DNA from: an uncultured Candidatus Saccharibacteria bacterium
Lineage (GTDB): Bacteria > Patescibacteriota > Minisyncoccia > Phycocordibacterales > Zambryskibacteraceae
Direction: 5' to 3'
Length of the DNA stretch: 64,000 nt
Assembly (NCBI GenBank): GCA_964349945.1
Contig: CAYGIH010000002.1
Location: forward strand, 46,937 to 110,936
The notes beneath the pieces were generated by a model. That model searched no databases, was not told where the DNA came from, and was given only the letters and a program-made list of their open reading frames with translations. Below, piece after piece: positions 1 through 55,006 of this stretch; the stretch's first letter is position 1, and every line of letters begins with the position of its first letter. The translations under genes and the position numbers were made by a program.

Positions 1-174
1 TCTGTTGGGCTTGGAACAGCCTCAAACCCAAATAACATTGAGGATACCGTTTCCGATATAAAACATTTTTTCGTTGTTGAATTAACAAAAAAAGGACTCG
101 TTAAAAATCTCCAAACTGCTGGGAGCGATCCTGATAATTATCACAAAGCATATATCATAAAATTTGATGCGGAT

Positions 175-561
175 GTGCAACCTCTTACTGAGTACTTGAA
201 GAAATTTGTAGCAACTGATGGAGGTCAACAAGAAGTAATTTGGTTTGAACCAGATTATGGTTTTTATAAAGCAGATAAAAATCAATATGTACCATATACA
301 GAAAATGGAAAATCAAAAAAGAGCTTTAACGTTTTAATGGCTGTAAGCAACAACGAGTTGTCAGCTTCAGAATTATCGAGAGAGGCAAAACTTGCGAGAC
401 CAAATATGGCTTCAGATACATGCAAAAGAATTAATGATCAATTCAAAAAACATTGTGGAGTTCGCGACTCCTTAATACAACGAGATACTACTAGCGGAAA
501 ATACCGAATCAATAGTAAATATGTGATTAGAGAGGTGAAAAAACATTTGAACATCTCGTAG
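175..561 (+). CDS. Hypothetical protein (element cargo)
   Basis: 128-aa ORF from the six-frame track with no recognisable motif. Confidence 0.3.
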   Translation: MQPLTEYLKKFVATDGGQQEVIWFEPDYGFYKADKNQYVPYTENGKSKKSFNVLMAVSNNELSASELSREAKLARPNMASDTCKRINDQFKKHCGVRDSLIQRDTTSGKYRINSKYVIREVKKHLNIS

Positions 562-833
562 ACATCAACAATCATCTGTGGATAACTTTTAAAATGGCTA
601 TATTGAGCCGTTTATTTTTTATCTTAAATTAACGCATGTCTAAGGGATTCTTTGTCTAATTCTGTTGAGATAAAGAAGATCGTAAGCACGATCATCTATG
701 TCTCGAAAATCCGTCAAAACCAATAGAGAGATTGAAAGAGCTGCTCAACTACTTGCAGATATATTCTTCGAATTGGTTACAAACAAACATGAGGCAAAAA
801 ACATCAAAAAATTAAAAGCTAATAAACATAATT

Positions 834-1814
834 ATGAAAGAACAACAAAAAGATATTAGGATTCGTCCTTTATCCCAATTAATGAAAATAGAGTTTCCAC
901 CTGTCGAATGGCTAGTGGATAAGCTCGTGCCTGTATCAAGTGTCATAGGCATATCGGGTTATCCCGCTTCTTACAAAACATGGTTTATTTTAGATTTAGC
1001 ATTAAAGGTAGCTAAAGGAGAAACTCTTTTTGATAAATTTAAAACTGGGCAAACTGGAGTACTTTTGGTTGATGAGGAAAATGGAGAGCGATCGCTTCAA
1101 AAACGATTCAACATTCTTAAAGCAGAAAGTTCTGATCTCCCTTTATATTGGACGTCCCTTAACGAATTCAAACTAACAAAAGATACGGTTGATTATTTGA
1201 TTAAGTCCGCAAATGAAAAAGGTGTAGGACTCATCATTTTTGACTCGTTAGTAAGAATTCATGAAAGCGATGAAAACAGTTCTCGAGAAATGGCTAAGGT
1301 AGCGTCATTGTTAAAGAGATTTACTAAAAATGATATAGCCGTGATCTTTACACACCACAACCGCAAGCCTAGTGGTGGGCAATCAAATCCCGCTCAAGAT
1401 ATGAGAGGTTCGTCTGATTTACTTGCTTCAATAGAAGTCCATATTGCTCTTTCGAGAAAAGTTGGAGGAAGAGTGGTTACAGTTACGCAGACAAAAATAC
1501 GAGACGGAGAAGAATCAAAGCCTTTCCAACTTGAACTGATATCAGACAAAGAACATTGTCATTTCCAATTCAATGGAACTGTTCAAGACAAAAAAGATGA
1601 AGTAATAGAAGCAATAAAAGAAACTTTGAAAACAAGAGACAACCTTCTTAGAAAGGAACTCTTTGAGTGCATAAAAGCGCTAGGTGTAAATGTCGGGAAT
1701 TCAACATTTAGTATGGCAACCAAAGAGATGATCTTAGATGAAGAACTCTTTGAGAGAAAAGGTTCCGGTAATAGTACATATTATTCACTAAAGCCTTTTA
1801 GCGAGAACGAGTAG
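834..1814 (+). CDS. RecA-fold P-loop ATPase, RepA-like (AAA_25/DnaB C-terminal-like) replication/primase-associated protein
   Basis: Walker A-like GISGYPASYKTW and Walker B-like GLIIFDSLVRIHESDE are present, plus a C-terminal HTH-like tail. This is the usual partner of integrases in integrative elements. Confidence 0.55.
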   Translation: MKEQQKDIRIRPLSQLMKIEFPPVEWLVDKLVPVSSVIGISGYPASYKTWFILDLALKVAKGETLFDKFKTGQTGVLLVDEENGERSLQKRFNILKAESSDLPLYWTSLNEFKLTKDTVDYLIKSANEKGVGLIIFDSLVRIHESDENSSREMAKVASLLKRFTKNDIAVIFTHHNRKPSGGQSNPAQDMRGSSDLLASIEVHIALSRKVGGRVVTVTQTKIRDGEESKPFQLELISDKEHCHFQFNGTVQDKKDEVIEAIKETLKTRDNLLRKELFECIKALGVNVGNSTFSMATKEMILDEELFERKGSGNSTYYSLKPFSENE

Positions 1815-1968
1815 ATTGAAATTCTCCTCTTATATAAGGGAAGAATATCAATCCGCTACCCACTTAGAACATATGAATGAGTAATTACACCAAAATCTCA
1901 AGACAAAACAGTGGCATAACTCTCCGTGAATTATCACGTATTCCAATGGATAATTAATCAATAAAATC

Positions 1969-3594
1969 ATGAATAAAACAAACGATAAAAACAGTAAAGT
2001 GGCCGTGGGGTATTGCCGTGTTAGTACTGACGATCAGGCAGATCAGGGTATATCTTTAGACTACCAAGAGGAACAGTGTAAAAAAGCAGCAGAAAAAGAT
2101 GGTTATAACGATAACGAGGTCCTCATTATTAGAGATGAGGGTAAAAGTGGAACAAACCTTAAAAGAAAAGGTATTCAAGAAATTATTGATCTCGCTAAGA
2201 AAAGAGAAATCTCAATTGTATATGTTACCCACTCTGATAGACTGGCTCGTAATATCGTCGACCACGCATTCTTAAGAAACACTCTACGAGCAAACAACAT
2301 AACTTTAAAATATCTAAACGGACAATCTTCACTCGACGACGCTTCGTCAATTATGGCTGACAACATGTTCGCTACGATTAATCAGTACCACAGTGATAAC
2401 ACGAGAGAAAAAACTAAACAGGCGGTCGATACTAAAGCAGAAGCGGGCTACTTCCCAACTCACGCTCCAGTTGGTTATATAAACACTTCTAACCCAAATA
2501 AAAATTGTGAGAAAGTGGCAAAGAGAATCATCATACCTAACCCCAAGACAGGACTCCTGGTAACCGAAGCGTTTAAAACATATGCTACAGGACAATATAA
2601 CGCCTACGAGCTCAATGATTTGATGTATGCAAAGGGACTTGTGAGCAATAGTGAAAAGAAGCTGAGTCCGAGTATGGTTTACGCAATGTTAAAAAATAAG
2701 GTTTATCTTGGTGAAATACATTGGATGGATATACATAATAAAAATGGTAAACACGAACCACTCATAGATAAGGATACTTTTAACCAAGTGCAAAATATTC
2801 TATCCGAAAGGAATCAGAACAGATGTAGAAGACGGAAGTATTTTTGGCTACTTAATGGTTATATGTTTTGTGCTGAACATAATTGTAGATACACCGCAGA
2901 ATGGCACTTAAATAAATCAAAGGCTTACTATCACTGCTCAAATAAGAAAGGTTGTGGTAAATATGTTGAAAAATCTGATCTCGAAAAACAAGTGGCACAA
3001 AAATTCAAACACTTAGAGTTTAACCAAGAATTTATTAATTCAATTATAGAAAAAGTAAAATCTATTTTTGATGAAAGAAAAAATGTATATCAGTCAGCAC
3101 AAAAAACACTACAAAGCAGAAAGAATGCATGTAATGCGAAATTAAGCAGTGCTGAAAATCGCCTACTCGATGAGACCTTATCAAAAGAAGATTACTTGCG
3201 AATAAAAGAAGCTGTGATAGCAGATACTTCTAGGATTGATAAAGAGTTGAATAATCTTCAGATTGGCCATGATATCAATATAGATCTTACCAGTGAGATA
3301 TTAGGCTTCACAAAGAATATATATAACACTTACATGCAGGCACCAGAGGAACTTCAAAAGAAATTCATAAGTCTTTTCTTTGAAGGATTTGATGTTAAAG
3401 ACGGACTTATAGTAAAAGACCGATACTCCCCATTGTTCCAAGAATTACTGAACTTAAACGCCCTCTCCATAAAAAGCCCATATGGCAGAAAAGCCGTTGA
3501 AAACAAAGGAAAAGAGAAACTTATATTAGATACATCTAGGGGTGGCTACCGGGAATCGAACCCGAATTGCGAGTTCCACAAACTCGAGTGTTAA
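1969..3594 (+). CDS. Large serine recombinase (resolvase/invertase N-terminal domain + recombinase domain + zinc ribbon + coiled coil)
   Basis: The N-terminus VGYCRVSTDDQ carries the catalytic Ser. A Cys-rich zinc ribbon (CAEHNCRYTAEWHLNKSKAYYHCSNKKGC) is present and the protein is 541 aa. Its last ~18 codons are read from the complement of tRNA-His. Confidence 0.85.
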   Translation: MNKTNDKNSKVAVGYCRVSTDDQADQGISLDYQEEQCKKAAEKDGYNDNEVLIIRDEGKSGTNLKRKGIQEIIDLAKKREISIVYVTHSDRLARNIVDHAFLRNTLRANNITLKYLNGQSSLDDASSIMADNMFATINQYHSDNTREKTKQAVDTKAEAGYFPTHAPVGYINTSNPNKNCEKVAKRIIIPNPKTGLLVTEAFKTYATGQYNAYELNDLMYAKGLVSNSEKKLSPSMVYAMLKNKVYLGEIHWMDIHNKNGKHEPLIDKDTFNQVQNILSERNQNRCRRRKYFWLLNGYMFCAEHNCRYTAEWHLNKSKAYYHCSNKKGCGKYVEKSDLEKQVAQKFKHLEFNQEFINSIIEKVKSIFDERKNVYQSAQKTLQSRKNACNAKLSSAENRLLDETLSKEDYLRIKEAVIADTSRIDKELNNLQIGHDINIDLTSEILGFTKNIYNTYMQAPEELQKKFISLFFEGFDVKDGLIVKDRYSPLFQELLNLNALSIKSPYGRKAVENKGKEKLILDTSRGGYRESNPNCEFHKLEC

Positions 3595-3613
3595 CCGTTA
3601 CACCATAGCCACC
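3541..3613 (-). tRNA. tRNA-His (anticodon GTG) with the G-1:C73 feature
   Basis: The reverse complement folds as a cloverleaf GGTGGCTATGGTGTAACGGTTAACACTCGAGTTTGTGGAACTCGCAATTCGGGTTCGATTCCCGGTAGCCACC. It has the anticodon loop TTGTGGA, a GTGT/ACAC D stem and a TTCGATT T-loop. Confidence 0.85.
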
Positions 3614-3627
3614 ATTATATGCACAAT

Positions 3628-4179
3628 CTAATTATAACTCGGCGGAGTCTCCTTTATACCAGATTTATGGTTGGATAGTCGAGCCAGAGCATAAAGTATA
3701 CTTGAAAGCCTGTTCATAAACTTGAGCGTTTGTTCTCCAAGTTTTATAGAATTTTCTGCATTCACCCCTACTACTCGCCTTTCTGCTCGACGAGCGATAG
3801 TGCGAGCGACGTCGAATGTGGCTGCAATGTCCGACCCTCCAGAGATGAAAAAAGTTTTAATTGGAGGCATCTCGTGTTCTACGAGGTCAATCCAATTTTC
3901 AACTTGCTTCACCTTCTCTTCACCGATGTGTTTATCTGCACCGGCGAGTTCTGCTTGAACCATAAAGAGATTTTCTTGGAGTATGTGCACTATACGAGCG
4001 AAAGAATCACCACCAACCTTGAGTTGCGCCTCTTCTGACTTCACCTTACATAATCCAAGAAATGAATTAATCTCATCCAAAGACCCAAGTGCTTCAGCTA
4101 TGGCTGAGCTCTTAGAAATCCTTTGGTCACAACCAAAAGTTTTTGTAGTCCCATCATCACCTTTTTTTGTGTATAACAT
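3628..4179 (-). CDS. ATP:cob(I)alamin adenosyltransferase, PduO type
   Basis: The YTKKGDDGTT motif near the N-terminus is the PduO-type ATR signature. The start is chosen at the internal Met of the 3628..4230 ORF. Confidence 0.65.
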   Translation of the reverse strand: MLYTKKGDDGTTKTFGCDQRISKSSAIAEALGSLDEINSFLGLCKVKSEEAQLKVGGDSFARIVHILQENLFMVQAELAGADKHIGEEKVKQVENWIDLVEHEMPPIKTFFISGGSDIAATFDVARTIARRAERRVVGVNAENSIKLGEQTLKFMNRLSSILYALARLSNHKSGIKETPPSYN

Positions 4180-4263
4180 GTGCACAAGAGAGGACTTGAA
4201 CCTCCACGGGTTGCCCCATACGAACCTCAATCGTACGCGTATACCAATTCCGCCACTTGTGCA

Positions 4264-4953
4264 TTAAGTAGAGCTATTTATGTGCTTTACTTTCAAGCCT
4301 ATCTTAGCGAAAGATTGAGCTATTTTCAATCTCTTTCTTGAAAGACACACAACATCCCTTGAATAGTACATTTTGCTCAAAATTTTGATTGAATCAGCCT
4401 TTGCGTATTTCAATTGTTCTGTACTACCCTTTCCATCTTTGGTTATATGCCCTTTAATACTTAAATGTTCAAAAATTCTTTTCTGCAACCAAAGAACAAA
4501 TTTTGGACTAGCAGAAGCAAACTCTGTATAAAACATAAAACTTGATTTCCATCTCTTGTCCCAATAAGAATAAAAGCACCCGTCTCCATCAAAACATCCG
4601 CGCAAAAAATCAAAGAAATATTCATTTGGTATATCAATTGCACCTATTGTCTTTGATTTTGCAGGAGTTAAACCAATCAACAAAAGAAATTCGTAAAATT
4701 TCTTGTTTTTAATTTGCACTCTTAATCCTTTTTTATTTAAACCTGAATTCTTTAAACCAATTTTTATATTTACACCAATACATTTATTAAAATTTTCGAG
4801 CTGTTCTCTATCATTTGAGGTCAGATCAATAAGATATGAGGTTTTAGATAAATAACCGTCTGTCGTAATCAAACCAATAGCATAAGCCAAATTACCTGAC
4901 CATTTTGTATTTATTACTATTTTTGATTTTCTTCCTCTATCCCCCATATGCAA
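4264..4953 (-). CDS. LAGLIDADG homing endonuclease (two-motif, single-chain), free-standing
   Basis: Two LAGLIDADG-like motifs are present: AIGLITTDGYL and LRGCFDGDGCF. Confidence 0.75.
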   Translation of the reverse strand: MHMGDRGRKSKIVINTKWSGNLAYAIGLITTDGYLSKTSYLIDLTSNDREQLENFNKCIGVNIKIGLKNSGLNKKGLRVQIKNKKFYEFLLLIGLTPAKSKTIGAIDIPNEYFFDFLRGCFDGDGCFYSYWDKRWKSSFMFYTEFASASPKFVLWLQKRIFEHLSIKGHITKDGKGSTEQLKYAKADSIKILSKMYYSRDVVCLSRKRLKIAQSFAKIGLKVKHINSST

Positions 4954-5002
4954 TATATTATATCCCGCTCAAGGGGATAGTGTCTACCCTAAGAAATAAA
5001 CA

Positions 5003-5028
5003 AAAAAACTGAAGAAATTCCGGAATTT
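5003..5028 (-). terminator. Intrinsic terminator after rplS
   Basis: Palindrome AAATTCCGGAATTT followed by a T-run on the minus strand. Confidence 0.5.
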
Positions 5029-5421
5029 TTATTCTGCTGATTTTTCCTCTTTGATCTCTTCGACATCCTTAGCCATACGAGTATTTCGCATTTGTCGTCT
5101 GATATCCTTGGCTGCTCGGTCTCTAATATGATAGAGCTTGGCTCGGCGAACTTTGGATCTCTTCACCACTTCTATCTTGTCTATCATTGGAGAATAAAGG
5201 AGAAAGGTTTTTTCTACACCTACTCCAGAAGAAACTCGACGAACAGTAAAGGTGGCTCCGGCCTCCTTGCCATGTTTCCTGGAGAGCACCAATCCTTCGA
5301 AAGCCTGTAGACGAGTCTTGCCCTTCTCTTGAATCTTCTGCCAAACACGAGCAGTATCGCCTGAACGTAGGTCAAGTTTCGCTCTTTCTTCTGTGTTTAC
5401 TGGTGAATGCACTGTTTTCAT
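5029..5421 (-). CDS. rplS: 50S ribosomal protein L19
   Basis: bL19-like sequence ([33 protein letters not shown]...). Confidence 0.9.
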
Positions 5422-5461
5422 AAGTCAGACTAATTTACCACAAGCACTGACCTGTGGCAAA

Positions 5462-6776: not shown

Positions 6777-6848
6777 GTCCTCGTAGTTCAATGGATAGAA
6801 CAGAGCTCTTCTAAGGCTTTGATGCAGGTTCGATTCCTGCCGAGGACA
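6777..6848 (+). tRNA. tRNA-Arg (anticodon TCT)
   Basis: Acceptor GTCCTCG/CGAGGAC, D-loop AATGGATA, anticodon loop CTTCTAA, T-loop TTCGATT. Confidence 0.85.
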
Positions 6849-7196
6849 CTAGATAGATGGATCTATAACACTATTACTACCAGATTTTATTTCCTGAAGC
6901 TTCTTAACTCTTGCCTCATAGAATAAAACAGTCTTTTCTATTGATTCTGCATCAAGTTTTTTTTCTTCTATTGTTGATGGTTTATCTACTAAAAATATAT
7001 TCCCATTAGCTATGGCTATAAACATATAAACACCGAGTGCAAAAACACTGATTGTTAGAGCCAAAAAGATAGTAAACAAAACCTTCCAATCTGCGTTTGG
7101 GCTAACACCCCATCCAAAAAGCTTGCCATTTTTATGCAGATGTAGATGAAGTTTAAATGGTAATTTAGGCATATTATTTAAATATATTAATAGCAA
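6849..7196 (-). CDS. Small membrane protein, possibly pilus-assembly associated
   Basis: Single TM helix; lies at the end of the pilM/N/O operon. Confidence 0.3.
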   Translation of the reverse strand: MLLIYLNNMPKLPFKLHLHLHKNGKLFGWGVSPNADWKVLFTIFLALTISVFALGVYMFIAIANGNIFLVDKPSTIEEKKLDAESIEKTVLFYEARVKKLQEIKSGSNSVIDPSI

Positions 7197-7731
7197 AAGT
7201 CACGTTTAAACGCCAAACTCTGTTCAAAGTTTTTGTGTTTTTATCCGAATCATTAGTAGAATTGTTTAAAGATAAGCTAGCGTTTTCTATAGTGATATTG
7301 GTAGGTAAATTTTCTAAAGCTTGAAGATATCTCATGCTGTTTCCCCATGAACCCTCTGTTTCTGTATTTATATGAACAATTAGTGGATACTTTATCCCCT
7401 TAGTACTAATTTTATCCTGAACTACCGAAACGGTTTTTGTGTCCAGCCCCATATCTTTTCCTAACCGCTCTACAGAATCAATAAGTGGTACAAGATCATC
7501 ACTGTGCACAAGGAGAACCAAAATTTTATCTATCTGTTTTTGATAAATATTTTTTATAGACCTAACAGAACCAGCCAAGGTACTTTCGTTTGCAGCTTCA
7601 TCTGCTTGGTTAGTTATTTGGGAAATATTTTGATTTTCTATTCTGATGATATAAACGCCAAAAATTAAAATTCCAAGTAATATCACAGCCAGGACTCCAA
7701 GTATATACAACAGTAATTTGTTCTTAGACAT
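7174..7731 (-). CDS. PilO-like type IV pilus assembly protein
   Basis: N-terminal TM with periplasmic domain, placed downstream of the PilM and PilN homologs. Confidence 0.4.
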   Translation of the reverse strand: MSKNKLLLYILGVLAVILLGILIFGVYIIRIENQNISQITNQADEAANESTLAGSVRSIKNIYQKQIDKILVLLVHSDDLVPLIDSVERLGKDMGLDTKTVSVVQDKISTKGIKYPLIVHINTETEGSWGNSMRYLQALENLPTNITIENASLSLNNSTNDSDKNTKTLNRVWRLNVTFAINIFK

Positions 7732-7732
7732 A

Positions 7733-8266
7733 TTATTTTGGAGATAGATTAAATTGAAAATTTATATCACTATTTTTTGCAAAATTTGAAACAGGAATAC
7801 TAACTTCAGAAAAATTACCAGAATTATTTAAGATGTTTTCAAAATCATACAAATCCTTTCTTCCTTTGGCCATACCAGCAATAGAGATTGTCGTTGACTT
7901 CAAATCTTTTTTCATAACAAAACTATTTATGATTATCCCGTCCGGTTTTGAATTTATTATCTTTACAAATAATTCATATGGAAGCGCCTTTTCATCAACT
8001 TGAGAAAGTGAAGATATTTCTTTATTTAATTCATCCATCCACTCGACCAACGCATGGGCGTCCTGTGTTGATGATTGATTATTCAATGCATCAATTTTTG
8101 TCTTTGCCTCATTCATCCTGGATTTGGAAATGATGTATGAAGGTAAAAGGGCCACAACCCCAATAAAAAGAATTAGACAAACCCCTCCTAACCCAACGAT
8201 TAATCTGCGAAGAAAATATTCTTTTTTTGCTTTAACTCGCGAATTATCTGTGAGTAATTTAAACAT
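7733..8266 (-). CDS. PilN-like type IV pilus assembly protein
   Basis: Short cytoplasmic N-terminus, TM helix and coiled coil, immediately after pilM. Confidence 0.45.
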   Translation of the reverse strand: MFKLLTDNSRVKAKKEYFLRRLIVGLGGVCLILFIGVVALLPSYIISKSRMNEAKTKIDALNNQSSTQDAHALVEWMDELNKEISSLSQVDEKALPYELFVKIINSKPDGIIINSFVMKKDLKSTTISIAGMAKGRKDLYDFENILNNSGNFSEVSIPVSNFAKNSDINFQFNLSPK

Positions 8267-9771: not shown

Positions 9772-10152
9772 CTAATTATTTTGTAAGTCTATATAACTTT
9801 TAAGTATTAAGGCTGCGGCGGAAGCATCTCGCATTTCATTCTGTCCTTGGATTCTGTCTGCTTCCATAGAAGTATAAACTTCCGGATGCATAACCACATC
9901 GATTTTCTCTGCTTTTAATTTCTCTACAAATAGTTTTATGTCTTGGGAAATTATATTAGGTGATCCGTCTAAGTTTTTTGAATCACCGACCACTACCCTT
10001 TCTATCTTTTCATCATTTATAGTTTTAAGAATCTTTTCAAGAAAGGTTTGGTCGTTTGGTAAAACCGCCCTAGGCAAAGCAAATTCTCCTGATTCATCAG
10101 TTGATGCTATCCCCACTCTTTTTGCCCCATAATCTACAGCCATAATCTTCAT
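9772..10152 (-). CDS. ruvX: Holliday junction resolvase-like RuvX/YqgF (pre-16S rRNA nuclease)
   Basis: MKIMAVDYGAKRVGIA N-terminus with the RNase H-like YqgF pattern. Confidence 0.8.
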   Translation of the reverse strand: MKIMAVDYGAKRVGIASTDESGEFALPRAVLPNDQTFLEKILKTINDEKIERVVVGDSKNLDGSPNIISQDIKLFVEKLKAEKIDVVMHPEVYTSMEADRIQGQNEMRDASAAALILKSYIDLQNN

Positions 10153-10179
10153 AGGAAACATTATAGTATAATAAAAATC

Positions 10180-10419
10180 ATGAATTTAATATCAAACACC
10201 CAAGAAGTAACTAATTGGTTTAGTGCCCATCCAATATTAGTAATAATTATCATGGTTTGGTCTATAGCTTGGAAGGGCTTGGCTTTGTGGAAATCAGCTC
10301 AACGCAATGAACAATATTGGTTTATAGCTCTACTCTTCATTAATACTGTTGGTATTTTGGACATTATTTATATTTACTTTTTTGCCAAAGACTCAAAAGT
10401 AGAGGTAATTAAGAGTTAA
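10180..10419 (+). CDS. Small membrane protein
   Basis: Two predicted TM helices, 79 aa. Confidence 0.3.
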   Translation: MNLISNTQEVTNWFSAHPILVIIIMVWSIAWKGLALWKSAQRNEQYWFIALLFINTVGILDIIYIYFFAKDSKVEVIKS

Positions 10420-10460
10420 AAATTGATTTTAGCCTCCGTTTGTGTTTTTATAGACCTCAC

Positions 10461-10551
10461 GGAGGAGTGGCTCGAGCGGTTTAAGGCACCACTCTTGAAA
10501 AGTGGAATCTGGGCAACTGGATCGTGAGTTCGAATCTCACCTCCTCCGCCA
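10461..10551 (+). tRNA. tRNA-Ser (anticodon TGA), with long variable arm and encoded CCA
   Basis: GGAGGAGTGGCTCGAGCGGTTTAAGGCACCACTCTTGAAAAGTGG...GTTCGAATCTCACCTCCTCCGCCA, close to bacterial tRNA-Ser(UGA). Confidence 0.9.
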
Positions 10552-10638
10552 AAATTGTGATTCTTGATATTCTATATTTTTATGATATGGTTTGAACGGG
10601 TCGTTCTTTAGGCCCTCCCTCATCACAAGGAGTCCTGG

Positions 10639-11214
10639 ATGCGTATTCGTATGATGTCGCTCCTGTCCGCGGCGTTGCTCGCTGCGTGCACGAGCGAGCC
10701 CACTGCTCCAAAGGCGGTGGAGCAGGCTGTCTCCACTTCGAGTGACATGATGGCTCTCAAGGGTGGCAGCTGCACTCTCGCCGATGGTCGGGTTGTGGCT
10801 CCGGGCTTCAACGCCCTCGGTTACAACTACTGCGCCGGCCTTTTCAACGGCCCCGCGGATGGAACCGACAAGGTTCTCGACGGTAAGGTCTGGGGTGACC
10901 CAACCTATGCCGCAGATCACCTCGTCATGAAGTGGAACTCTGCATGGGATGCATGCAACGCAAATCGTAACGTCACGAACTGCACCGGCGCCTGGACCGA
11001 CAATGAATGGAATGGCAAGGTGGCCGGAGGAAGCGGAGAGTCCTGGCACTACAAGATCAAGTGGGTGGGCTCGTGCGGATCATACGGCACACCCCTCGCA
11101 AGTGGCGGATACTGCATCTGGAATGAATATGCAGTATTGTTTTCCCACGGGTCAGTGGCCAACCAACACTTCTGGGACACTCACGCCAAGCCGGCCGGCT
11201 ACGGCACCCAGTAA
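10639..11214 (+). CDS. GC-rich lipoprotein (signal peptide with LAAC lipobox), function unknown
   Basis: N-terminus MRIRMMSLLSAALLAAC. The CDS is much more GC-rich than its surroundings, with an AAGGAG RBS and a terminator after it. Confidence 0.55.
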   Translation: MRIRMMSLLSAALLAACTSEPTAPKAVEQAVSTSSDMMALKGGSCTLADGRVVAPGFNALGYNYCAGLFNGPADGTDKVLDGKVWGDPTYAADHLVMKWNSAWDACNANRNVTNCTGAWTDNEWNGKVAGGSGESWHYKIKWVGSCGSYGTPLASGGYCIWNEYAVLFSHGSVANQHFWDTHAKPAGYGTQ

Positions 11215-11224
11215 GATTTCCCAC

Positions 11225-11258
11225 GGGCGCGATGCAATAGCACGCGCTCTTTTTTTAT
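11225..11258 (+). terminator. Intrinsic terminator after the GC-rich lipoprotein gene
   Basis: GCGCG...CGCGC stem followed by TCTTTTTTT. Confidence 0.5.
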
Positions 11259-11291
11259 TATTTAGATTTATTTTTGTGCTAGAATTTATGT

Positions 11292-11762
11292 ATGGCAAAG
11301 ACAGATCTTCGTCTTGAATGGACTGCTCAAGAATATGAACATAAAGAAAGAACTCAGGATTGGTTCTGGGCAGTAGGGATTATTACTGTCTCTATCTCCA
11401 TTGCTTCAATTATCTTTGGGAACATCATTTTCGGCATCTTTATTTTGGTAGCAGCTTTTTCTCTTTCCCTATACATAAACCGTCCACCAGAAACTCTCCA
11501 AATGAAGATTGACTCTATGGGTATAGCCAGAAATAAAATTTATTACCCCTTTGAGACTCTTCACTCATTCTGTATAGATATAGAACACCCGCACAAAAAA
11601 ATAATCCTTCGCTCAAAAAAAATGTTTATGCCTCTTATAGTCGTCCCTCTTGGTGAAGAAGTTAACTTTGAAAAAGTTAATGCAATATTAAAAGAATATC
11701 TCCCCGAAGAATATCACGAGCTTCCTTTCATGGAGAACATTTTGGAATTCTTAGGATTCTAG
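11292..11762 (+). CDS. Hypothetical membrane protein
   Basis: Two TM helices near the N-terminus. Confidence 0.35.
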   Translation: MAKTDLRLEWTAQEYEHKERTQDWFWAVGIITVSISIASIIFGNIIFGIFILVAAFSLSLYINRPPETLQMKIDSMGIARNKIYYPFETLHSFCIDIEHPHKKIILRSKKMFMPLIVVPLGEEVNFEKVNAILKEYLPEEYHELPFMENILEFLGF

Positions 11763-13240: not shown

Positions 13241-14092
13241 ATGCCTGAACTACCAGAAGTCCAAACAACCGTGAACGGTCTAAACAAAACTGTGAGGGGC
13301 AGGACTATTTTAGATGTCTGGACAGATTATAAAAGTGACTTCCATACAGGCAAGGATAATATAAAAAATCCAAAGTTTTTTAAAATTTTTAAAAAGGAAA
13401 TCTTGGGCACGAAAATATTAAAAGCCGAAAGACGAGGAAAAAATATTTTGATCAGTTTGGATAGTGGAAAAACAATTCTTGCTCATATGAAAATGACTGG
13501 ATTCTTCTTCTACAATCCACCAACAGACGAAAGATTTGTGCGAGTAAAATTTTATTTAGACAATAAAAAGGTTCTGGCTTTCTCTGATATGCGTAAGTTT
13601 GCAAAGATTACTCTAATAGAAACAAAAGAAAGAGAAAAGGATTCTGAGCTCTCTCACCTTGGACCAGATGCGCTGGACATCACCATAGAAAAATTTAAAA
13701 AAGTTCTGTCCAAAGAAAAACGTCCCATTAAACAAATGCTTATGGATCAATCGCTCCTCACTGGTGTTGGGAATATTTATTCTGATGAATCCCTCTGGCT
13801 CTCCTGTATCCATCCTCGCTCAACCCCCAACAAAATACCCAATAAACAAGCCGAATTACTCCTAGAAGCAATAAAAAAAGTCCTAAAAACAGGCATAGAT
13901 TTTGGTGGTGATTCTATGTCCGACTACAGAAACATCTATGGAGAAAAAGGTAAATTTCAAAATAAACATAATGCTTATAGAAAAACTGGAGATAAATGTT
14001 CAAGAAAAAACTGCAAGGGAGTAATCACTCGGGATGTAGTCGCCACACGTAGTGCACATTTTTGTTCTATTCATCAAAAACTATTTAAGTAA
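13241..14092 (+). CDS. mutM: Formamidopyrimidine-DNA glycosylase (Fpg/MutM)
   Basis: MPELPEV N-terminus with catalytic Pro2, and a C-terminal Cys zinc finger. The start was moved to this Met inside the 13109..14092 ORF. Confidence 0.85.
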   Translation: MPELPEVQTTVNGLNKTVRGRTILDVWTDYKSDFHTGKDNIKNPKFFKIFKKEILGTKILKAERRGKNILISLDSGKTILAHMKMTGFFFYNPPTDERFVRVKFYLDNKKVLAFSDMRKFAKITLIETKEREKDSELSHLGPDALDITIEKFKKVLSKEKRPIKQMLMDQSLLTGVGNIYSDESLWLSCIHPRSTPNKIPNKQAELLLEAIKKVLKTGIDFGGDSMSDYRNIYGEKGKFQNKHNAYRKTGDKCSRKNCKGVITRDVVATRSAHFCSIHQKLFK

Positions 14093-52747: not shown

Positions 52748-53830
52748 TTATTCGGTCGGCTCTTCCGACTCATCCATGGACACAGCATCACCACGGCGAG
52801 AACGGATCCTCTTGGTCCGCTTGCCACTGTTGATGTGGTCACGCATGAGGATGTAGAGCATGTCAGCAGCCTTACCGTTGCCGGTGGCCAGACTGACGAT
52901 CTGCGGGTCGTTGATCGGGAAGAGAGAAATCTTGCGACGAAGCGACGCTTCGACGGTCAAGACCTTCTCATCCGACTCACGCCAGAAATCGTAATGATCC
53001 GACATGAGACGAGCGAGCACGTTCAGAAAGGTGCTCTTCACGTAGATGGCACCTTCACGATACTGGATGCGCTTGATTCCCCAGCACTCATCAACGAGCT
53101 GGAAAAAGGTCTTGGTATTCGATCGAAGGATCTGAACACCGAAGACATCAACCGCCTTATCGAGAGCAGGCACCAGTTCGTCAACGGAAGTCCGTCGCGC
53201 TGGAGCCTTGTGCGAATGCAGGTGACCAACCACCTTGAGCATGGTGAGAGCGGAGATGAGCTCCCCGCGGGTCATCCGCTGATTCCACGAGACACGGTCA
53301 TTCAGCGGGAAGCCCTTGTCGCTCGTCGAGAGCGAATAGAGGGTTGCCACTGAAGAACTGTCCTCTCGCCTGTTGCGCAGAATCACATTCGGCGACACCT
53401 TGTTGCGCAAGGTGTTCAAGATGCGGAAACGCTCCCGTTCCCACTCCTTGGTTGTGCCGAAGTGAATAGTCGCACCGAGTCGCACCTGCGCAGCTGAGTT
53501 CTGGGCCAGGAAGTGGATCGCACCATTGACGCGCTGAAGGCCGTCGATGATGTAAACCTCGTCCTTGAGCAGAGCCGTACCTTCCCTTTCGGAAAAGTTC
53601 TCACCGCGCATGCCGAGTTCGATGTCAGGAAGAGTTTCCCCTCCCTTGAGGGCTCCCAGAATGCTACTGAGAGCAGTGATCGGCGCAGCCTCACGCTGGT
53701 AGTCGTCGATCTTCAGGTGGACCAGACTATTCTGGTCGACCACACCACGCAGGACGATTTCCCCCTTTGGGGTTTCGTCGAGAGCGCAGTGGATGATGCG
53801 GATAGGCGCATCAGCCTTACGTGCGTTCAT
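52748..53830 (-). CDS. DGQHR/ParB-like-nuclease-fold protein (DndB/DUF262-related), GC-rich
   Basis: The motif YIIDGLQRVNGAIHFL matches the DGQ(H/Q)R signature of DndB/DUF262 ParB-fold proteins. The start was set at MNARKA, which follows a GGAG RBS. The CDS is strongly GC-rich. Confidence 0.55.
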   Translation of the reverse strand: MNARKADAPIRIIHCALDETPKGEIVLRGVVDQNSLVHLKIDDYQREAAPITALSSILGALKGGETLPDIELGMRGENFSEREGTALLKDEVYIIDGLQRVNGAIHFLAQNSAAQVRLGATIHFGTTKEWERERFRILNTLRNKVSPNVILRNRREDSSSVATLYSLSTSDKGFPLNDRVSWNQRMTRGELISALTMLKVVGHLHSHKAPARRTSVDELVPALDKAVDVFGVQILRSNTKTFFQLVDECWGIKRIQYREGAIYVKSTFLNVLARLMSDHYDFWRESDEKVLTVEASLRRKISLFPINDPQIVSLATGNGKAADMLYILMRDHINSGKRTKRIRSRRGDAVSMDESEEPTE

Positions 53831-53930
53831 TGCCCATCTCCATGTAATTGGGCTGTGAAAGAGCATCTCGGAGCAGTAGACTCAAAATGGTCTCTTATGT
53901 CCGAGGATTCGTCAACCGACGAAATCAAGA

Positions 53931-53962
53931 CGATTTTTACATATTTGTAGAGGGTTTGTCAA
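53931..53962 (-). promoter_or_regulatory. Sigma70-like promoter (TTGACA, ~17-nt spacer, TAAAAA/AAAAAT) for the DGQHR gene
   Basis: The reverse complement reads TTGACAaaccctctacaaatatgTAAAAAtcg. Confidence 0.4.
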
Positions 53963-53977
53963 TTATAAAATTAAGCA

Positions 53978-54019
53978 AAAGAAAACCGCGTTGCAGAGAA
54001 GGTTCTCTCTGCAACGCGG
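53978..54019 (-). terminator. Intrinsic terminator after the Pro-rich membrane protein gene
   Basis: Perfect 14-bp stem CCGCGTTGCAGAGA/TCTCTGCAACGCGG followed by a U-run. Confidence 0.65.
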
Positions 54020-54044
54020 GTACTAAGGTGCTTTGATTCTGGTG

Positions 54045-54848
54045 TTACGAACGCGCCGGCGGTGGCAACACGATGCGAGTGCCGTCCTCGTAGAAGAGAA
54101 CGACCTCATGCCGAACTGGCATAACGATCGACGGAGCCGGTGCCGGGGTCGGGGCAGGAACCGGAACGACAGGAGCCGGCGGAGCGACCACTGGGGTCGG
54201 CGTCGCGGGCACAGGCGTCGGTGCCGGAGCAACCGGAGCGGGTGCTGGCGTCTTGGGCGGAGTGTTCCGTCCGTTCAACCAGTTCCACAACTCACTCAGG
54301 AACCAGAAGATGACCGCGAGGAGCAGACCCAGGAAGAGAATGCTCAGCAGGAACTTGAAGAGGTCCCAAAGCCAGTTGGCGGCCCGTTCGAACCAGCCCC
54401 CATTCTGCTTTGCGAGCGTCTTGTTCACCGCCGTGTAGAGCTCCTTGTTCTGCTCCTTCATGGTGGCGACTTGCCGTTCGAGGTCCGCGAGCATCTCGCG
54501 ACATTTCGGGCACTCGCTCGCCTTCACGATGCGGTTGGTGCAATCCGCTTTGTAGCGGAGCGTACCATCCTGGTCGGCCCACACGATCGTGCCGCGCACG
54601 AGCGTCTCGAGGACGAAACGATTCGTGTTGTTGAAGTAGTTGAGCACCGTGACGGTGTCAGCGAGCTCAACGGCGTGCAGACCGAGCTTGGCCTGCATGG
54701 CCGGGGTCATCTCGCCCTGCTTCATGATCGGGTACTTGTTCAGCTCGGCCTCGGCCGGCGCTGCGTACGTTCCCCGCTGAGCCAGAGCGTTAGACGCTCC
54801 ACCGAAGGTGAGGACGACGATGAACATGGACAGCAAATACTTGCGCAT
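54045..54848 (-). CDS. GC-rich signal-peptide protein with an extracytoplasmic domain, a single TM helix and a Pro/Ala/Val/Thr-rich C-terminal tail
   Basis: MRKYLLSMFIVVLTFGGASNALA signal peptide, TM FKFLLSILFLGLLLAVIFWFL, and a PAPAPVAPAPTPVPATPTPVVAPPAPVV tail. Confidence 0.5.
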   Translation of the reverse strand: MRKYLLSMFIVVLTFGGASNALAQRGTYAAPAEAELNKYPIMKQGEMTPAMQAKLGLHAVELADTVTVLNYFNNTNRFVLETLVRGTIVWADQDGTLRYKADCTNRIVKASECPKCREMLADLERQVATMKEQNKELYTAVNKTLAKQNGGWFERAANWLWDLFKFLLSILFLGLLLAVIFWFLSELWNWLNGRNTPPKTPAPAPVAPAPTPVPATPTPVVAPPAPVVPVPAPTPAPAPSIVMPVRHEVVLFYEDGTRIVLPPPARS

Positions 54849-55006
54849 TTGTAGCTCCGTGGTGTGTGGTCTCTGAGTTGCGAACGATTCGCAACCAATG
54901 AATCAAAGTAAAGGTTCTTCGCACTATCTTTTTTAATATTAGCATATTCAAACCTATTTGTCAATAGAGCAAATAAAGCCTATAAATATGAGTAAATGTT
55001 ATAATA

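Follow-up and report, generated by a model that had tools for sequence, protein, structure and literature searches.

In the Islander paper (PMC4383910), only tyrosine integrases are stated to target tRNA genes (tDNAs), serine integrases at such sites being "not known". In the successor to that paper, serine integrases at tRNA genes account for 14 of 297 computational cases, for which proof is called for, versus 44.5% for tyrosine integrases (PMC7192596), and 910 of 937 tycheposons and cryptic elements carry a tyrosine recombinase, the rest having a large serine recombinase (LSR) (bioRxiv 10.1101/2020.12.28.424599). Within the tyrosine family, the open reading frames (ORFs) of IntP of myxophage Mx8 and of the integrase of fusellovirus SSV1 extend across the attachment site of their own element (attP), according to the summary given in the Islander paper (PMC4383910, refs 24 and 25). 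In the literature that we searched, no report was found of a serine integrase whose ORF crosses attP, although absence there is not proof. Here we analyze a stretch of 64,000 nucleotides (nt), termed the window, from an uncultured Candidatus Saccharibacteria bacterium with a Minisyncoccia-like Patescibacteria genome (contig CAYGIH010000002.1, positions 46,937 to 110,936 of the forward strand), which holds at its left edge the right-hand part of an element inserted at a tRNA-His gene. We consider it very likely that this element was inserted by its own LSR and that the LSR gene spans its own attP, being interrupted and having its C-terminus exchanged by integration at the tip of tRNA-His.

The recombinase ORF (window 1969..3594, + strand) encodes 541 amino acids (aa) ending in ...GGYRESNPNCEFHKLEC and converges with an intact tRNA-His(GTG) gene (3539..3612, - strand, with G-1 at 3613), which was identified by ARAGORN and by Rfam (tRNA model, 59.3 bits). 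The two genes overlap over 56 nt (3539-3594), corresponding to about tRNA positions 19-75; ORF calling, ARAGORN and Rfam all agree on this point with a preliminary description, made from the sequence alone, according to which the 3' end of the recombinase is written across the tRNA. The same description took the protein to be an LSR, as is borne out by matches to Resolvase (PF00239; 4.5e-31, residues 12-160) and Recombinase (PF07508; 2.9e-11), by a match to Zn_ribbon_recom (PF13408; 1e-4) that at 23.1 bits falls just below the cutoff of 25.3, and by its fold. In an alignment of 50 homologous sequences, the nucleophile S19 within YCRVSTDDQ is conserved in at least 90%, and R17 and the zinc site (C301, H304, C323, and C329) are invariant. 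The AlphaFold (AF2) model has a mean predicted local distance difference test (pLDDT) score of 81.7 and long coiled-coil helices at residues 353-400 and 406-432; it is confident to about residue 502, whereas pLDDT is below 50 from residue 503 and residues 503-541 are disordered. Foldseek matched the model to full-length solved LSRs, the best being the SPbeta integrase (9dxd_A, E 4.7e-19), followed by those of Bxb1 (9iu2_A), PhiC31 (9tep_A), and LI of Listeria (4kis). In a sequence search of the PDB, the closest match was the TP901-1 catalytic domain (5.2e-11), with no match past the catalytic domain. In fold and site architecture, the 541-aa protein is a bona fide large serine integrase.

A search for homologues of the LSR retrieved 759 proteins at E<=1e-10, essentially all in Patescibacteria metagenomes, and such elements are present in dozens of Patescibacteria species representatives, so the earlier expectation that the element would be rare for this lineage has to be given up. 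Many of the homologues have C-termini that resemble antisense tRNA T-arms. We collected 52 loci of LSR relatives (33-64% identity) from one-genome-per-species contigs, 48 of them with a complete ORF. A converging tRNA is overlapped by 10-106 nt in 30 of the 48 ORFs, and 10 further ones enter an antisense T-arm motif at intron-containing or contig-truncated tRNAs, indicating that the overlap in the window is not due to chance. The tRNA concerned in these 40 antisense endings is His, Lys, Asn, Arg or Phe, and in the 30 overlaps its type tracks the recombinase subfamily. Because the stop position varies freely within the tRNA, the tRNA-encoded residues are not selected; in the window, the last 16 codons and the stop (3544..3594, + strand; residues 526-541, GYRESNPNCEFHKLEC) are host DNA, antisense of the tRNA-His, and probably a meaningless read-through. 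Several intron-type targets hold a group I intron, of the kind recently described in Patescibacteria tRNA-Asn (PMC13011429). At three loci (L008 2049-2345, L012 11580-11764, and L019 11585-11860) the group I intron directly follows the recombinase stop, and there the intron-containing tRNA was missed or misnamed by ARAGORN. No LSR relative was found in IMG/VR, and a metagenome scan added only about 10 family members, with no circular contig among them.

The window could be extended by 13.7 kb to the left with the Logan contigs L001 and L170. Left ends were first recognised in two related elements, at tRNA-Arg (L014) and tRNA-Lys (L021), where a core of 5-7 nt is common with the tRNA-side attachment site (attR) and the TTATAA motif of the recombinase-proximal arm recurs behind this core in inverted orientation. 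By pattern search, the sequence after the core proved conserved and coding (PE[HQ]EIIITI[FL]SDxxYMxxLYxKLLFIKA...). A profile of this tail, built from ten left-end peptides and run on six-frame translations, gave 20 matches (E<1e-4), each of which lies on the LSR strand and precedes, on its upstream side, both the LSR gene and the LOOT RNA (RF03000), a non-coding RNA carried by these elements. The tails of the His type read QYPNFIITILEDxxYMxSLYxKxLNIK, with the profile form QYPNFIITILED..YM.SLY, and Pfam recognises no known domain in the tail. In the element of the window the orphan tail, 35 aa long (QYSNTIITILEDEKYMTSLYSRYHAIKVDLASTLL and a stop, preceded across the junction by LILG), lies at L001 763-870 on the + strand (window -7269..-7162; E 8.6e-6). 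A left attachment site (attL) picked by hand at L001 ~1995-2045 (TTTTGGT...TATTATAGAC) was discarded, since the tail profile placed attL at L001 759-762; generic scoring of palindromes and cores was too noisy in AT-rich DNA and left the true sites unranked. The element is thus 10,813 bp long, with 7.27 kb left of the window and the right-hand 3.5 kb inside it.

We reconstructed attP by fusing the left portion of attR with the right portion of attL at the codon shared by both, which is GGT in the His type and TCC or TGC in the Lys and Arg types. Across this codon the tail is in frame with the LSR gene in all 12 reconstructed loci (His, Lys, and Arg types), an outcome whose probability by chance is about (1/3)^12. 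Unbroken ORFs comprising LSR and tail occur at tandem junctions in L012 and in L081, where the ORF at 1525-3294 encodes 589 aa with Resolvase, Recombinase, and Zn_ribbon_recom domains. Codon differences among tails are 1.6-2 times as frequent at the third position as at positions 1 and 2, and many changes are synonymous; this bias over about 31 codons indicates that the tail is conserved as protein, not just as a binding site of 25 bp. The LSR gene spans attP, and integration detaches its last ~35 codons, so that the ORF reads into the tRNA until a chance stop. The part encoded by the element itself, codons 1-525 (window 1969..3543, + strand), covers the catalytic and recombinase domains and the zinc ribbon, into which the coiled coil is inserted, and ends in a disordered linker that starts at about residue 503. 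From the excised circle, a 560-aa enzyme (residues 1-525 plus the 35-aa tail) would be made; in the 541-aa protein of the integrated copy, 16 antisense-tRNA residues would take the place of the tail. The arm of attP next to the recombinase (P arm) encodes the end of a flexible linker (...KLILDTSRG), given that the AF2 model is disordered from residue 503, and the tail would sit behind this linker. The other arm (P') and ~80 nt after it code for the 35-aa tail, and integration places this stretch at the far end of the element.

Sites used by LSRs are expected to include an attP of about 40-50 bp with an imperfect dyad, a small core, and a 2-bp crossover. In the element of the window, attL and attR have only the 4-nt core GGGT in common, located at L001 759-762 (window -7273..-7270; ...GATCTT-GGGT-CAGTATTCG) and at window 3540-3543 (...ATCTAG-GGGT-GGCTACC; tRNA positions 71-74, A71-C74), respectively. 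Codon 525 (GGT, window 3541-3543, + strand) lies within the core. The P arm of attR, CTTATATTAGATACATCTAG, occupies window 3520..3539, and its outer motif TTATAT (3521-3526) also supplies Leu-Ile-Leu codons. The junction sequences are ACATCTAGGGGTGGCTACCGGG for attR and TTTTGATCTTGGGTCAGTATTCGAAC for attL, and those predicted for attP and for the empty host site (attB) are ACATCTAGGGGTCAGTATTCGAAC and TTTTGATCTTGGGTGGCTACCGGG. The 12 attP sites reconstructed at three tRNA types are about 45 bp long, with cores of 3-7 nt and inverted outer motifs. In nine of them, TTATAW in the P arm and inverted TWATAA in the opposite (P') arm are exactly 33 bp apart, as are TTATAT and TTATAA in the element of the window; the other three comprise one script mis-assignment and two variant motifs. 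These motifs double as coding sequence, giving V-I-I of the linker and I-I-I-T of the tail. The central base of the 33-bp spacing is the last base of the shared codon, and because this symmetry sets the centre, the 2-bp crossover would take place at GT (window 3542-3543, tRNA A71-C72). The tRNA-His gene is the host target, its acceptor plus the 3' strand of its T-arm being the B' arm. The B arm, which attL has on its host side, shows little conservation and in most cases starts within the tRNA terminator hairpin. Left of attL in L014 (3093-3185) and L021 (334-400), we also noticed a terminator-like palindrome beside which the tRNA 3' end (12-13 nt) is repeated in inverted orientation.

Compared with the LSRs of phages and of integrative and conjugative elements (SPbeta SprA, PhiC31, Bxb1, A118/LI, and TP901-1), the system in the window has the same domain order, fold, and gene position at the edge of the element, the same short attP (~45 bp) with inverted outer motifs, and the same restriction of attB identity to a few bases round the central dinucleotide. 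It differs in that the targets are tRNA 3' tips, attP lies inside the integrase ORF, the hosts are Patescibacteria, and no recombination directionality factor (RDF) was recognised.

The arrangement could also be incidental, with an LSR that ends at about residue 525 and has lost its stop, and with a left-end peptide that is either a separate small gene or what a deletion has left of an upstream recombinase. Such a reading would account for tRNA-encoded residues that are unconserved, with stops 10-106 nt into the tRNA, and predicted to be disordered, and immediately ahead of the core some attL sites do show an ATG, TTG or GTG in frame. However, it leaves the in-frame continuation at 12 of 12 loci and the contiguous ORFs at tandem junctions to coincidence, several attL sites (L007 and L022) have a stop and no start directly upstream of the tail, and a deletion remnant would have to end at the core each time, abutted by host terminator hairpins. 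We therefore regard incidental read-through as very improbable.

Some observations weigh against an LSR gene that is split at attP by insertion of a mobile element. The tail is absent from all 120 nearest database proteins, and it was not found within the 10-kb flank of L002, L006, L013, and the Asn-type loci. For the element of the window the full-length ORF is a reconstruction, such ORFs being seen directly only at the tandem junctions of other members, and no excised circle or attP junction of this element was observed. Besides, a few homologues (P0034, P0061, and that of L031) share another ending, ..DVRTI.., which the tail profile does not recognise. Lastly, pseudo-copies of the tRNA-His 3' end (14-20 nt) lie outside the LSR element, further left (L001 704-717 and 722-752; L170 12378-12400; L163 10815-10836; L166 ~11050-11075). 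A 2-bp crossover cannot make such copies, which means that another process has also acted at this tRNA-His hotspot.

Four recombinases do not end in a tRNA: L160 10001-11584 (P0034), L004 10001-11581, L031 9959-11578, and L177 10001-11638 (P0061). Those of L160, L031, and L177 share the ending ..(D/E)(D/N/E)VRT..., and that of L004 ends in ...ARELYNPQTT. Compared with the usual core, the ..DVRT.. ending begins further inside the tRNA acceptor, by 3-9 nt; in L177 it stands at the tandem junction with a second LOOT element, and in L160 and L004 a tRNA-His is located ~3.8 kb beyond the recombinase. We did not retain the ..DVRTI.. endings as divergent tails, since the likeness is by eye only and the tail profile gives it no support.

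A classical tRNA island is a further alternative, in which crossing over would have taken place far inside the tRNA (T-loop or anticodon loop), the 3' half borne by the element would be functional, and the displaced host half would be found at the other end. The 56-nt overlap fits this in appearance, and the pseudo-copies in L001, L170, and L163 suggest that such an event happened here before. A similar idea was put forward in the preliminary description, which held that the 3' half of the tRNA had been rebuilt from the att sequence of the element. To compare with empty sites, we used relatives found via homologues of the neighbouring cobalamin adenosyltransferase (CobAT) gene. Three of them, L163 (90% identity), L166 (94%), and L168 (83%), have the tRNA-His without a recombinase; together with the defined attL and attR, this comparison, which the preliminary description had advised, bears out the element end that it proposed at tRNA-His and the continuation of the element past the left edge of the window. 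Over its whole length, the tRNA-His gene in L163 matches the one in the window at 100% identity, and homology between the two ends only after ...GGTAGCCACCCC (...CCACCCC), DNA homology resuming 12.3 kb away. At this boundary, L163 encodes ...CACCCCA with its CCA end (L163 10663), and the window has ...CACCCCT, so that the final A is no longer encoded (window 3538).

A second comparison is provided by L162, an element that resides in a different host, is related by 73% LSR identity, and has the same sequence up to ...CTAGGGGTG and a nearly identical P arm. Beyond GGGGTG (...ATCTAGGGGTG) it has the tRNA-His variant of its own host, with host-side compensation of its stem differences. In the 10 kb upstream of the LSR gene of the window and in 30 family loci, no tRNA repeat of at least 11-12 nt was found, as is explained by the tiny size of the shared core. 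Taken together, the identical tRNA at the empty site, the L162 junction, and the lack of an upstream repeat indicate that the 56-nt overlap is host DNA and not a copy borne by the element. The tRNA is not meaningfully split and no tRNA fragment is duplicated at attL; the element contributes at most tRNA C73-C75 and the trailer. The claim of a rebuilt 3' half is thereby contradicted, as attL and attR have only GGGT in common. The same description proposed that a missing second copy of the tRNA 3' segment would refute the insertion; the copy is indeed absent at attL, yet the element is clearly inserted, and since a 2-bp crossover is all that a serine integrase requires, a test based on repeats is not valid for this kind of enzyme.

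The pseudo-copies do not restore a classical island either, since they lie outside the LSR element, one of them past MurB and HIT and the other from a different tRNA-His variant. L001 704-717 is an attR-like remnant with a degenerate P arm and 14 nt of this variant (GTAGTCAC, not GTAGCCAC). The pseudo 3' end at L170 12378-12400, beyond the MurB and HIT genes, is positionally homologous to the copies of 15-20 nt in L163 and L166, and L168 looks virgin. MurB and HIT lie between two pseudo-copies and are not at this position in the three close relatives. In the comparison of the 12.3-kb insertion with L163 and L166, u340, MurB, and HIT might have been taken for one unit, but attL puts u340 inside and MurB and HIT outside the LSR element. 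With an attL set by a conserved in-frame tail, an identical tRNA at an empty site, and the same P arm joined in L162 to a different, internally compensated tRNA, we judge a classical island to be the least probable of the alternatives, slightly behind incidental read-through. In common with Islander islands and tycheposons, the insertion at the tRNA tip does constitute a small element at a tRNA gene, in which the integrase sits at the edge nearest the tRNA, with a gene of replication type (primase, helicase or RepA-like), variable cargo, and a build-up of tandem arrays and decayed remnants at one tRNA. It differs by the absence of a displaced distal tRNA fragment, by a serine recombinase that is family-wide, by its candidate phyla radiation (CPR) hosts, and by the LOOT RNA; because no displaced tDNA fragment was present when tested, we conclude that the system in the window is not an Islander-type island.

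Several features concern mobility. Elements that are otherwise related differ in their cargo, with a right flank that is nonetheless syntenic, and tandem arrays of two elements at one tRNA are present in L012, L038, L081, L046, and L177. The recombinases in such arrays are located at L012 2-1456, L038 3-1274, L081 1525-3294, and L046 9998-11623, and L177 has LOOT RNAs at 8016-8132 and 13809-13921. The upstream recombinase of L012 and that of L081 retain a full-length ORF, which continues into the left end of the neighbouring element, and attL tails are duplicated in L028 and L031. In L005 and L048, the contig begins ~60 nt to the left of the tail and stops inside the tRNA, hence breaks at both att sites. 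As judged from these sequences, variable cargo, tandem arrays, and contig breaks at att sites argue for mobility of the LSR element family. Breaks of Logan contigs inside the tRNA were not used as evidence for the position of the crossover, because a tRNA sequence shared by strains explains them equally well.

The copy in the window might nevertheless be a fixed, immobile relic or a domesticated recombinase that is inherited vertically. The arrangement is the same in the three assemblies that carry this element, older decayed scars are present at the locus, and no RDF was identified. On the other hand, the three closest relatives are without the element, and in the copy of the window the ORFs of LSR and tail, the two cores, and the attP geometry with its 33-bp spacing are all intact. 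The Logan contig breaks in the tRNA are compatible with population heterogeneity, although the tRNA shared by strains could account for them as well. We thus hold an immobile relic to be unlikely, while giving it clearly more weight than the two alternatives above.

Starting from attL, the element holds, after the orphan tail, a 332-aa gene of sporadic distribution with only 25 homologues (L001 879-1877, - strand), two C5 DNA methylases (2117-4476, +), an HNH_2 protein (4430-5437, +), small hypotheticals including a DUF5681 protein (6799-7077, +), and a 172-aa gene (7080-7598, -). These are followed by the LOOT RNA (7641-7752, -) and by a block made up of a hypothetical gene, a replication-type gene, and the recombinase (10001-11626, +). 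The first gene of this block (L001 7841-8593, +) encodes 250 aa, is divergent from the LOOT RNA, and crosses the window edge, starting at window -191 and having its 3' part at 1..561. The "hypothetical ORF" of the preliminary description, at 175..561, is indeed present, but constitutes only the 3' part of this gene, which starts 191 nt left of the window. Neither Pfam nor PHROG gave a match for the 250-aa protein, and a gene for 230-340 aa occupies the same slot in most family loci. The second gene (L001 8866-9846, window 834..1814, +) encodes an AAA_25 ATPase with a RepA/DnaB-like RecA fold (Pfam AAA_25, 4.9e-29), as had been proposed for it, and its PHROG matches cover the helicase parts of primase-helicases. 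This ATPase (cluster 1) occurs in 14 loci, and elsewhere the slot is taken by a winged helix-turn-helix protein (c3) or by a 526-aa helix-turn-helix (HTH) protein (c24).

Family elements generally carry a LOOT RNA together with an ATPase of replication type or an HTH protein, and bring restriction-modification genes as cargo. In the element of the window, the ATPase would serve replication or maintenance of the excised circle, the two C5-methylases and the HNH nuclease would be cargo, and the LOOT RNA would be the conserved non-coding part. No capsid or terminase gene is present in this element, no Phage_integrase gene was found in its 10.8 kb, and no RDF candidate was recognised among its small ORFs. 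It looks like an integrative plasmid-like or satellite-like element, not a complete prophage.

To our knowledge, LOOT has been described only from metagenomic sequence, and we know of no function or genomic context for it. In the element of the window it scores 72.5 bits against a gathering threshold of 46.4, covers model positions 1-121, and is located 280-391 nt left of the window start. It was found in about 35 family loci. As a constant part of these elements (L001, and also L002-L034, L038-L039, L048-L049, L080-L083, and L172-L177), it is always located directly 5' of a minus-strand gene for 170-270 aa and divergent from the hypothetical-replication-recombinase block. Five IMG/VR contigs also contain it, one of them with a large terminase. 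Compared with RF03000, which is listed among "metagenomic-based RNAs" (PMC7779021), the RNA is the same by its above-threshold score and differs in being placed here in a defined mobile element. We also detected a SAM riboswitch (L002 5024-5140, - strand; 64.4 bits) in the element-side flank of a related element.

On the other side of the tRNA-His, the longest ORF of the CobAT gene (window 3628-4230, - strand) starts at a TTG inside tRNA-Leu (4180-4262, -), the recorded start being the ATG at 4179. Between tRNA-Leu and rplS lies a free-standing LAGLIDADG-type ORF (4264-4953, -; 229 aa; weak Pfam match). At this position, L163 and L166 have an M16 peptidase, and the LAGLIDADG gene is common to L014, L022, and L080. 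Further away, window 53001-55000 has a G+C content of 0.54-0.58 compared with ~0.38 in the background; it gave no Rfam match and is therefore not rRNA.

The closest logical analogue of the split LSR gene is Mx8, in which, going by the summary in the Islander paper, the integrase's C-terminal region is altered and the target is a tRNA gene; as reported there for Mx8 and SSV1, the ORF spans attP and integration at a tRNA replaces (Mx8) or splits off (SSV) the C-terminal part. The system described here differs from both in having a serine instead of a tyrosine enzyme, of unrelated family and chemistry. Moreover, the attP of Mx8 and SSV holds a sizeable tRNA segment whereas the core is only 4-7 nt here, and what is exchanged is a tail of ~35 aa behind a disordered linker, not a part of the catalytic domain. 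Such an exchange would make the properties of the enzyme depend on the state of the element. By analogy with Mx8 IntP and IntX, one may speculate that the full-length form is the proficient integrase and that the truncated prophage form has altered or reduced activity. We put forward only tentatively, and as a rather doubtful possibility, that the C-terminal exchange is a directionality switch that reports the state of the element and replaces or supplements an RDF. The 560-aa enzyme made from the circle would then drive and lock integration, and the form without tail would permit excision, or the reverse. A tail behind a disordered linker of ~25 residues recalls the engineered integrase-linker-RDF fusions that switch direction (PMC5737554; bioRxiv 10.1101/2025.05.02.651858).

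In summary, these elements add a large and coherent serine integrase family that targets tRNA genes, a combination treated as unknown or unproven in the literature, and this family integrates without splitting the tRNA, the crossover being located in the last bases of the acceptor end. This is apparently the first case among serine recombinases of an integrase gene that spans its own attP, with free and integrated forms encoding different proteins, and the orphan LOOT RNA gains a genomic home in a Patescibacteria mobile element. If the switch reading were true, the directionality of a serine integrase would be encoded by the topology of its own gene. CPR bacteria largely lack genetics, and the attP/attB pairs for tRNA-His, Lys, Asn, Arg, and Phe may provide integration tools for them.

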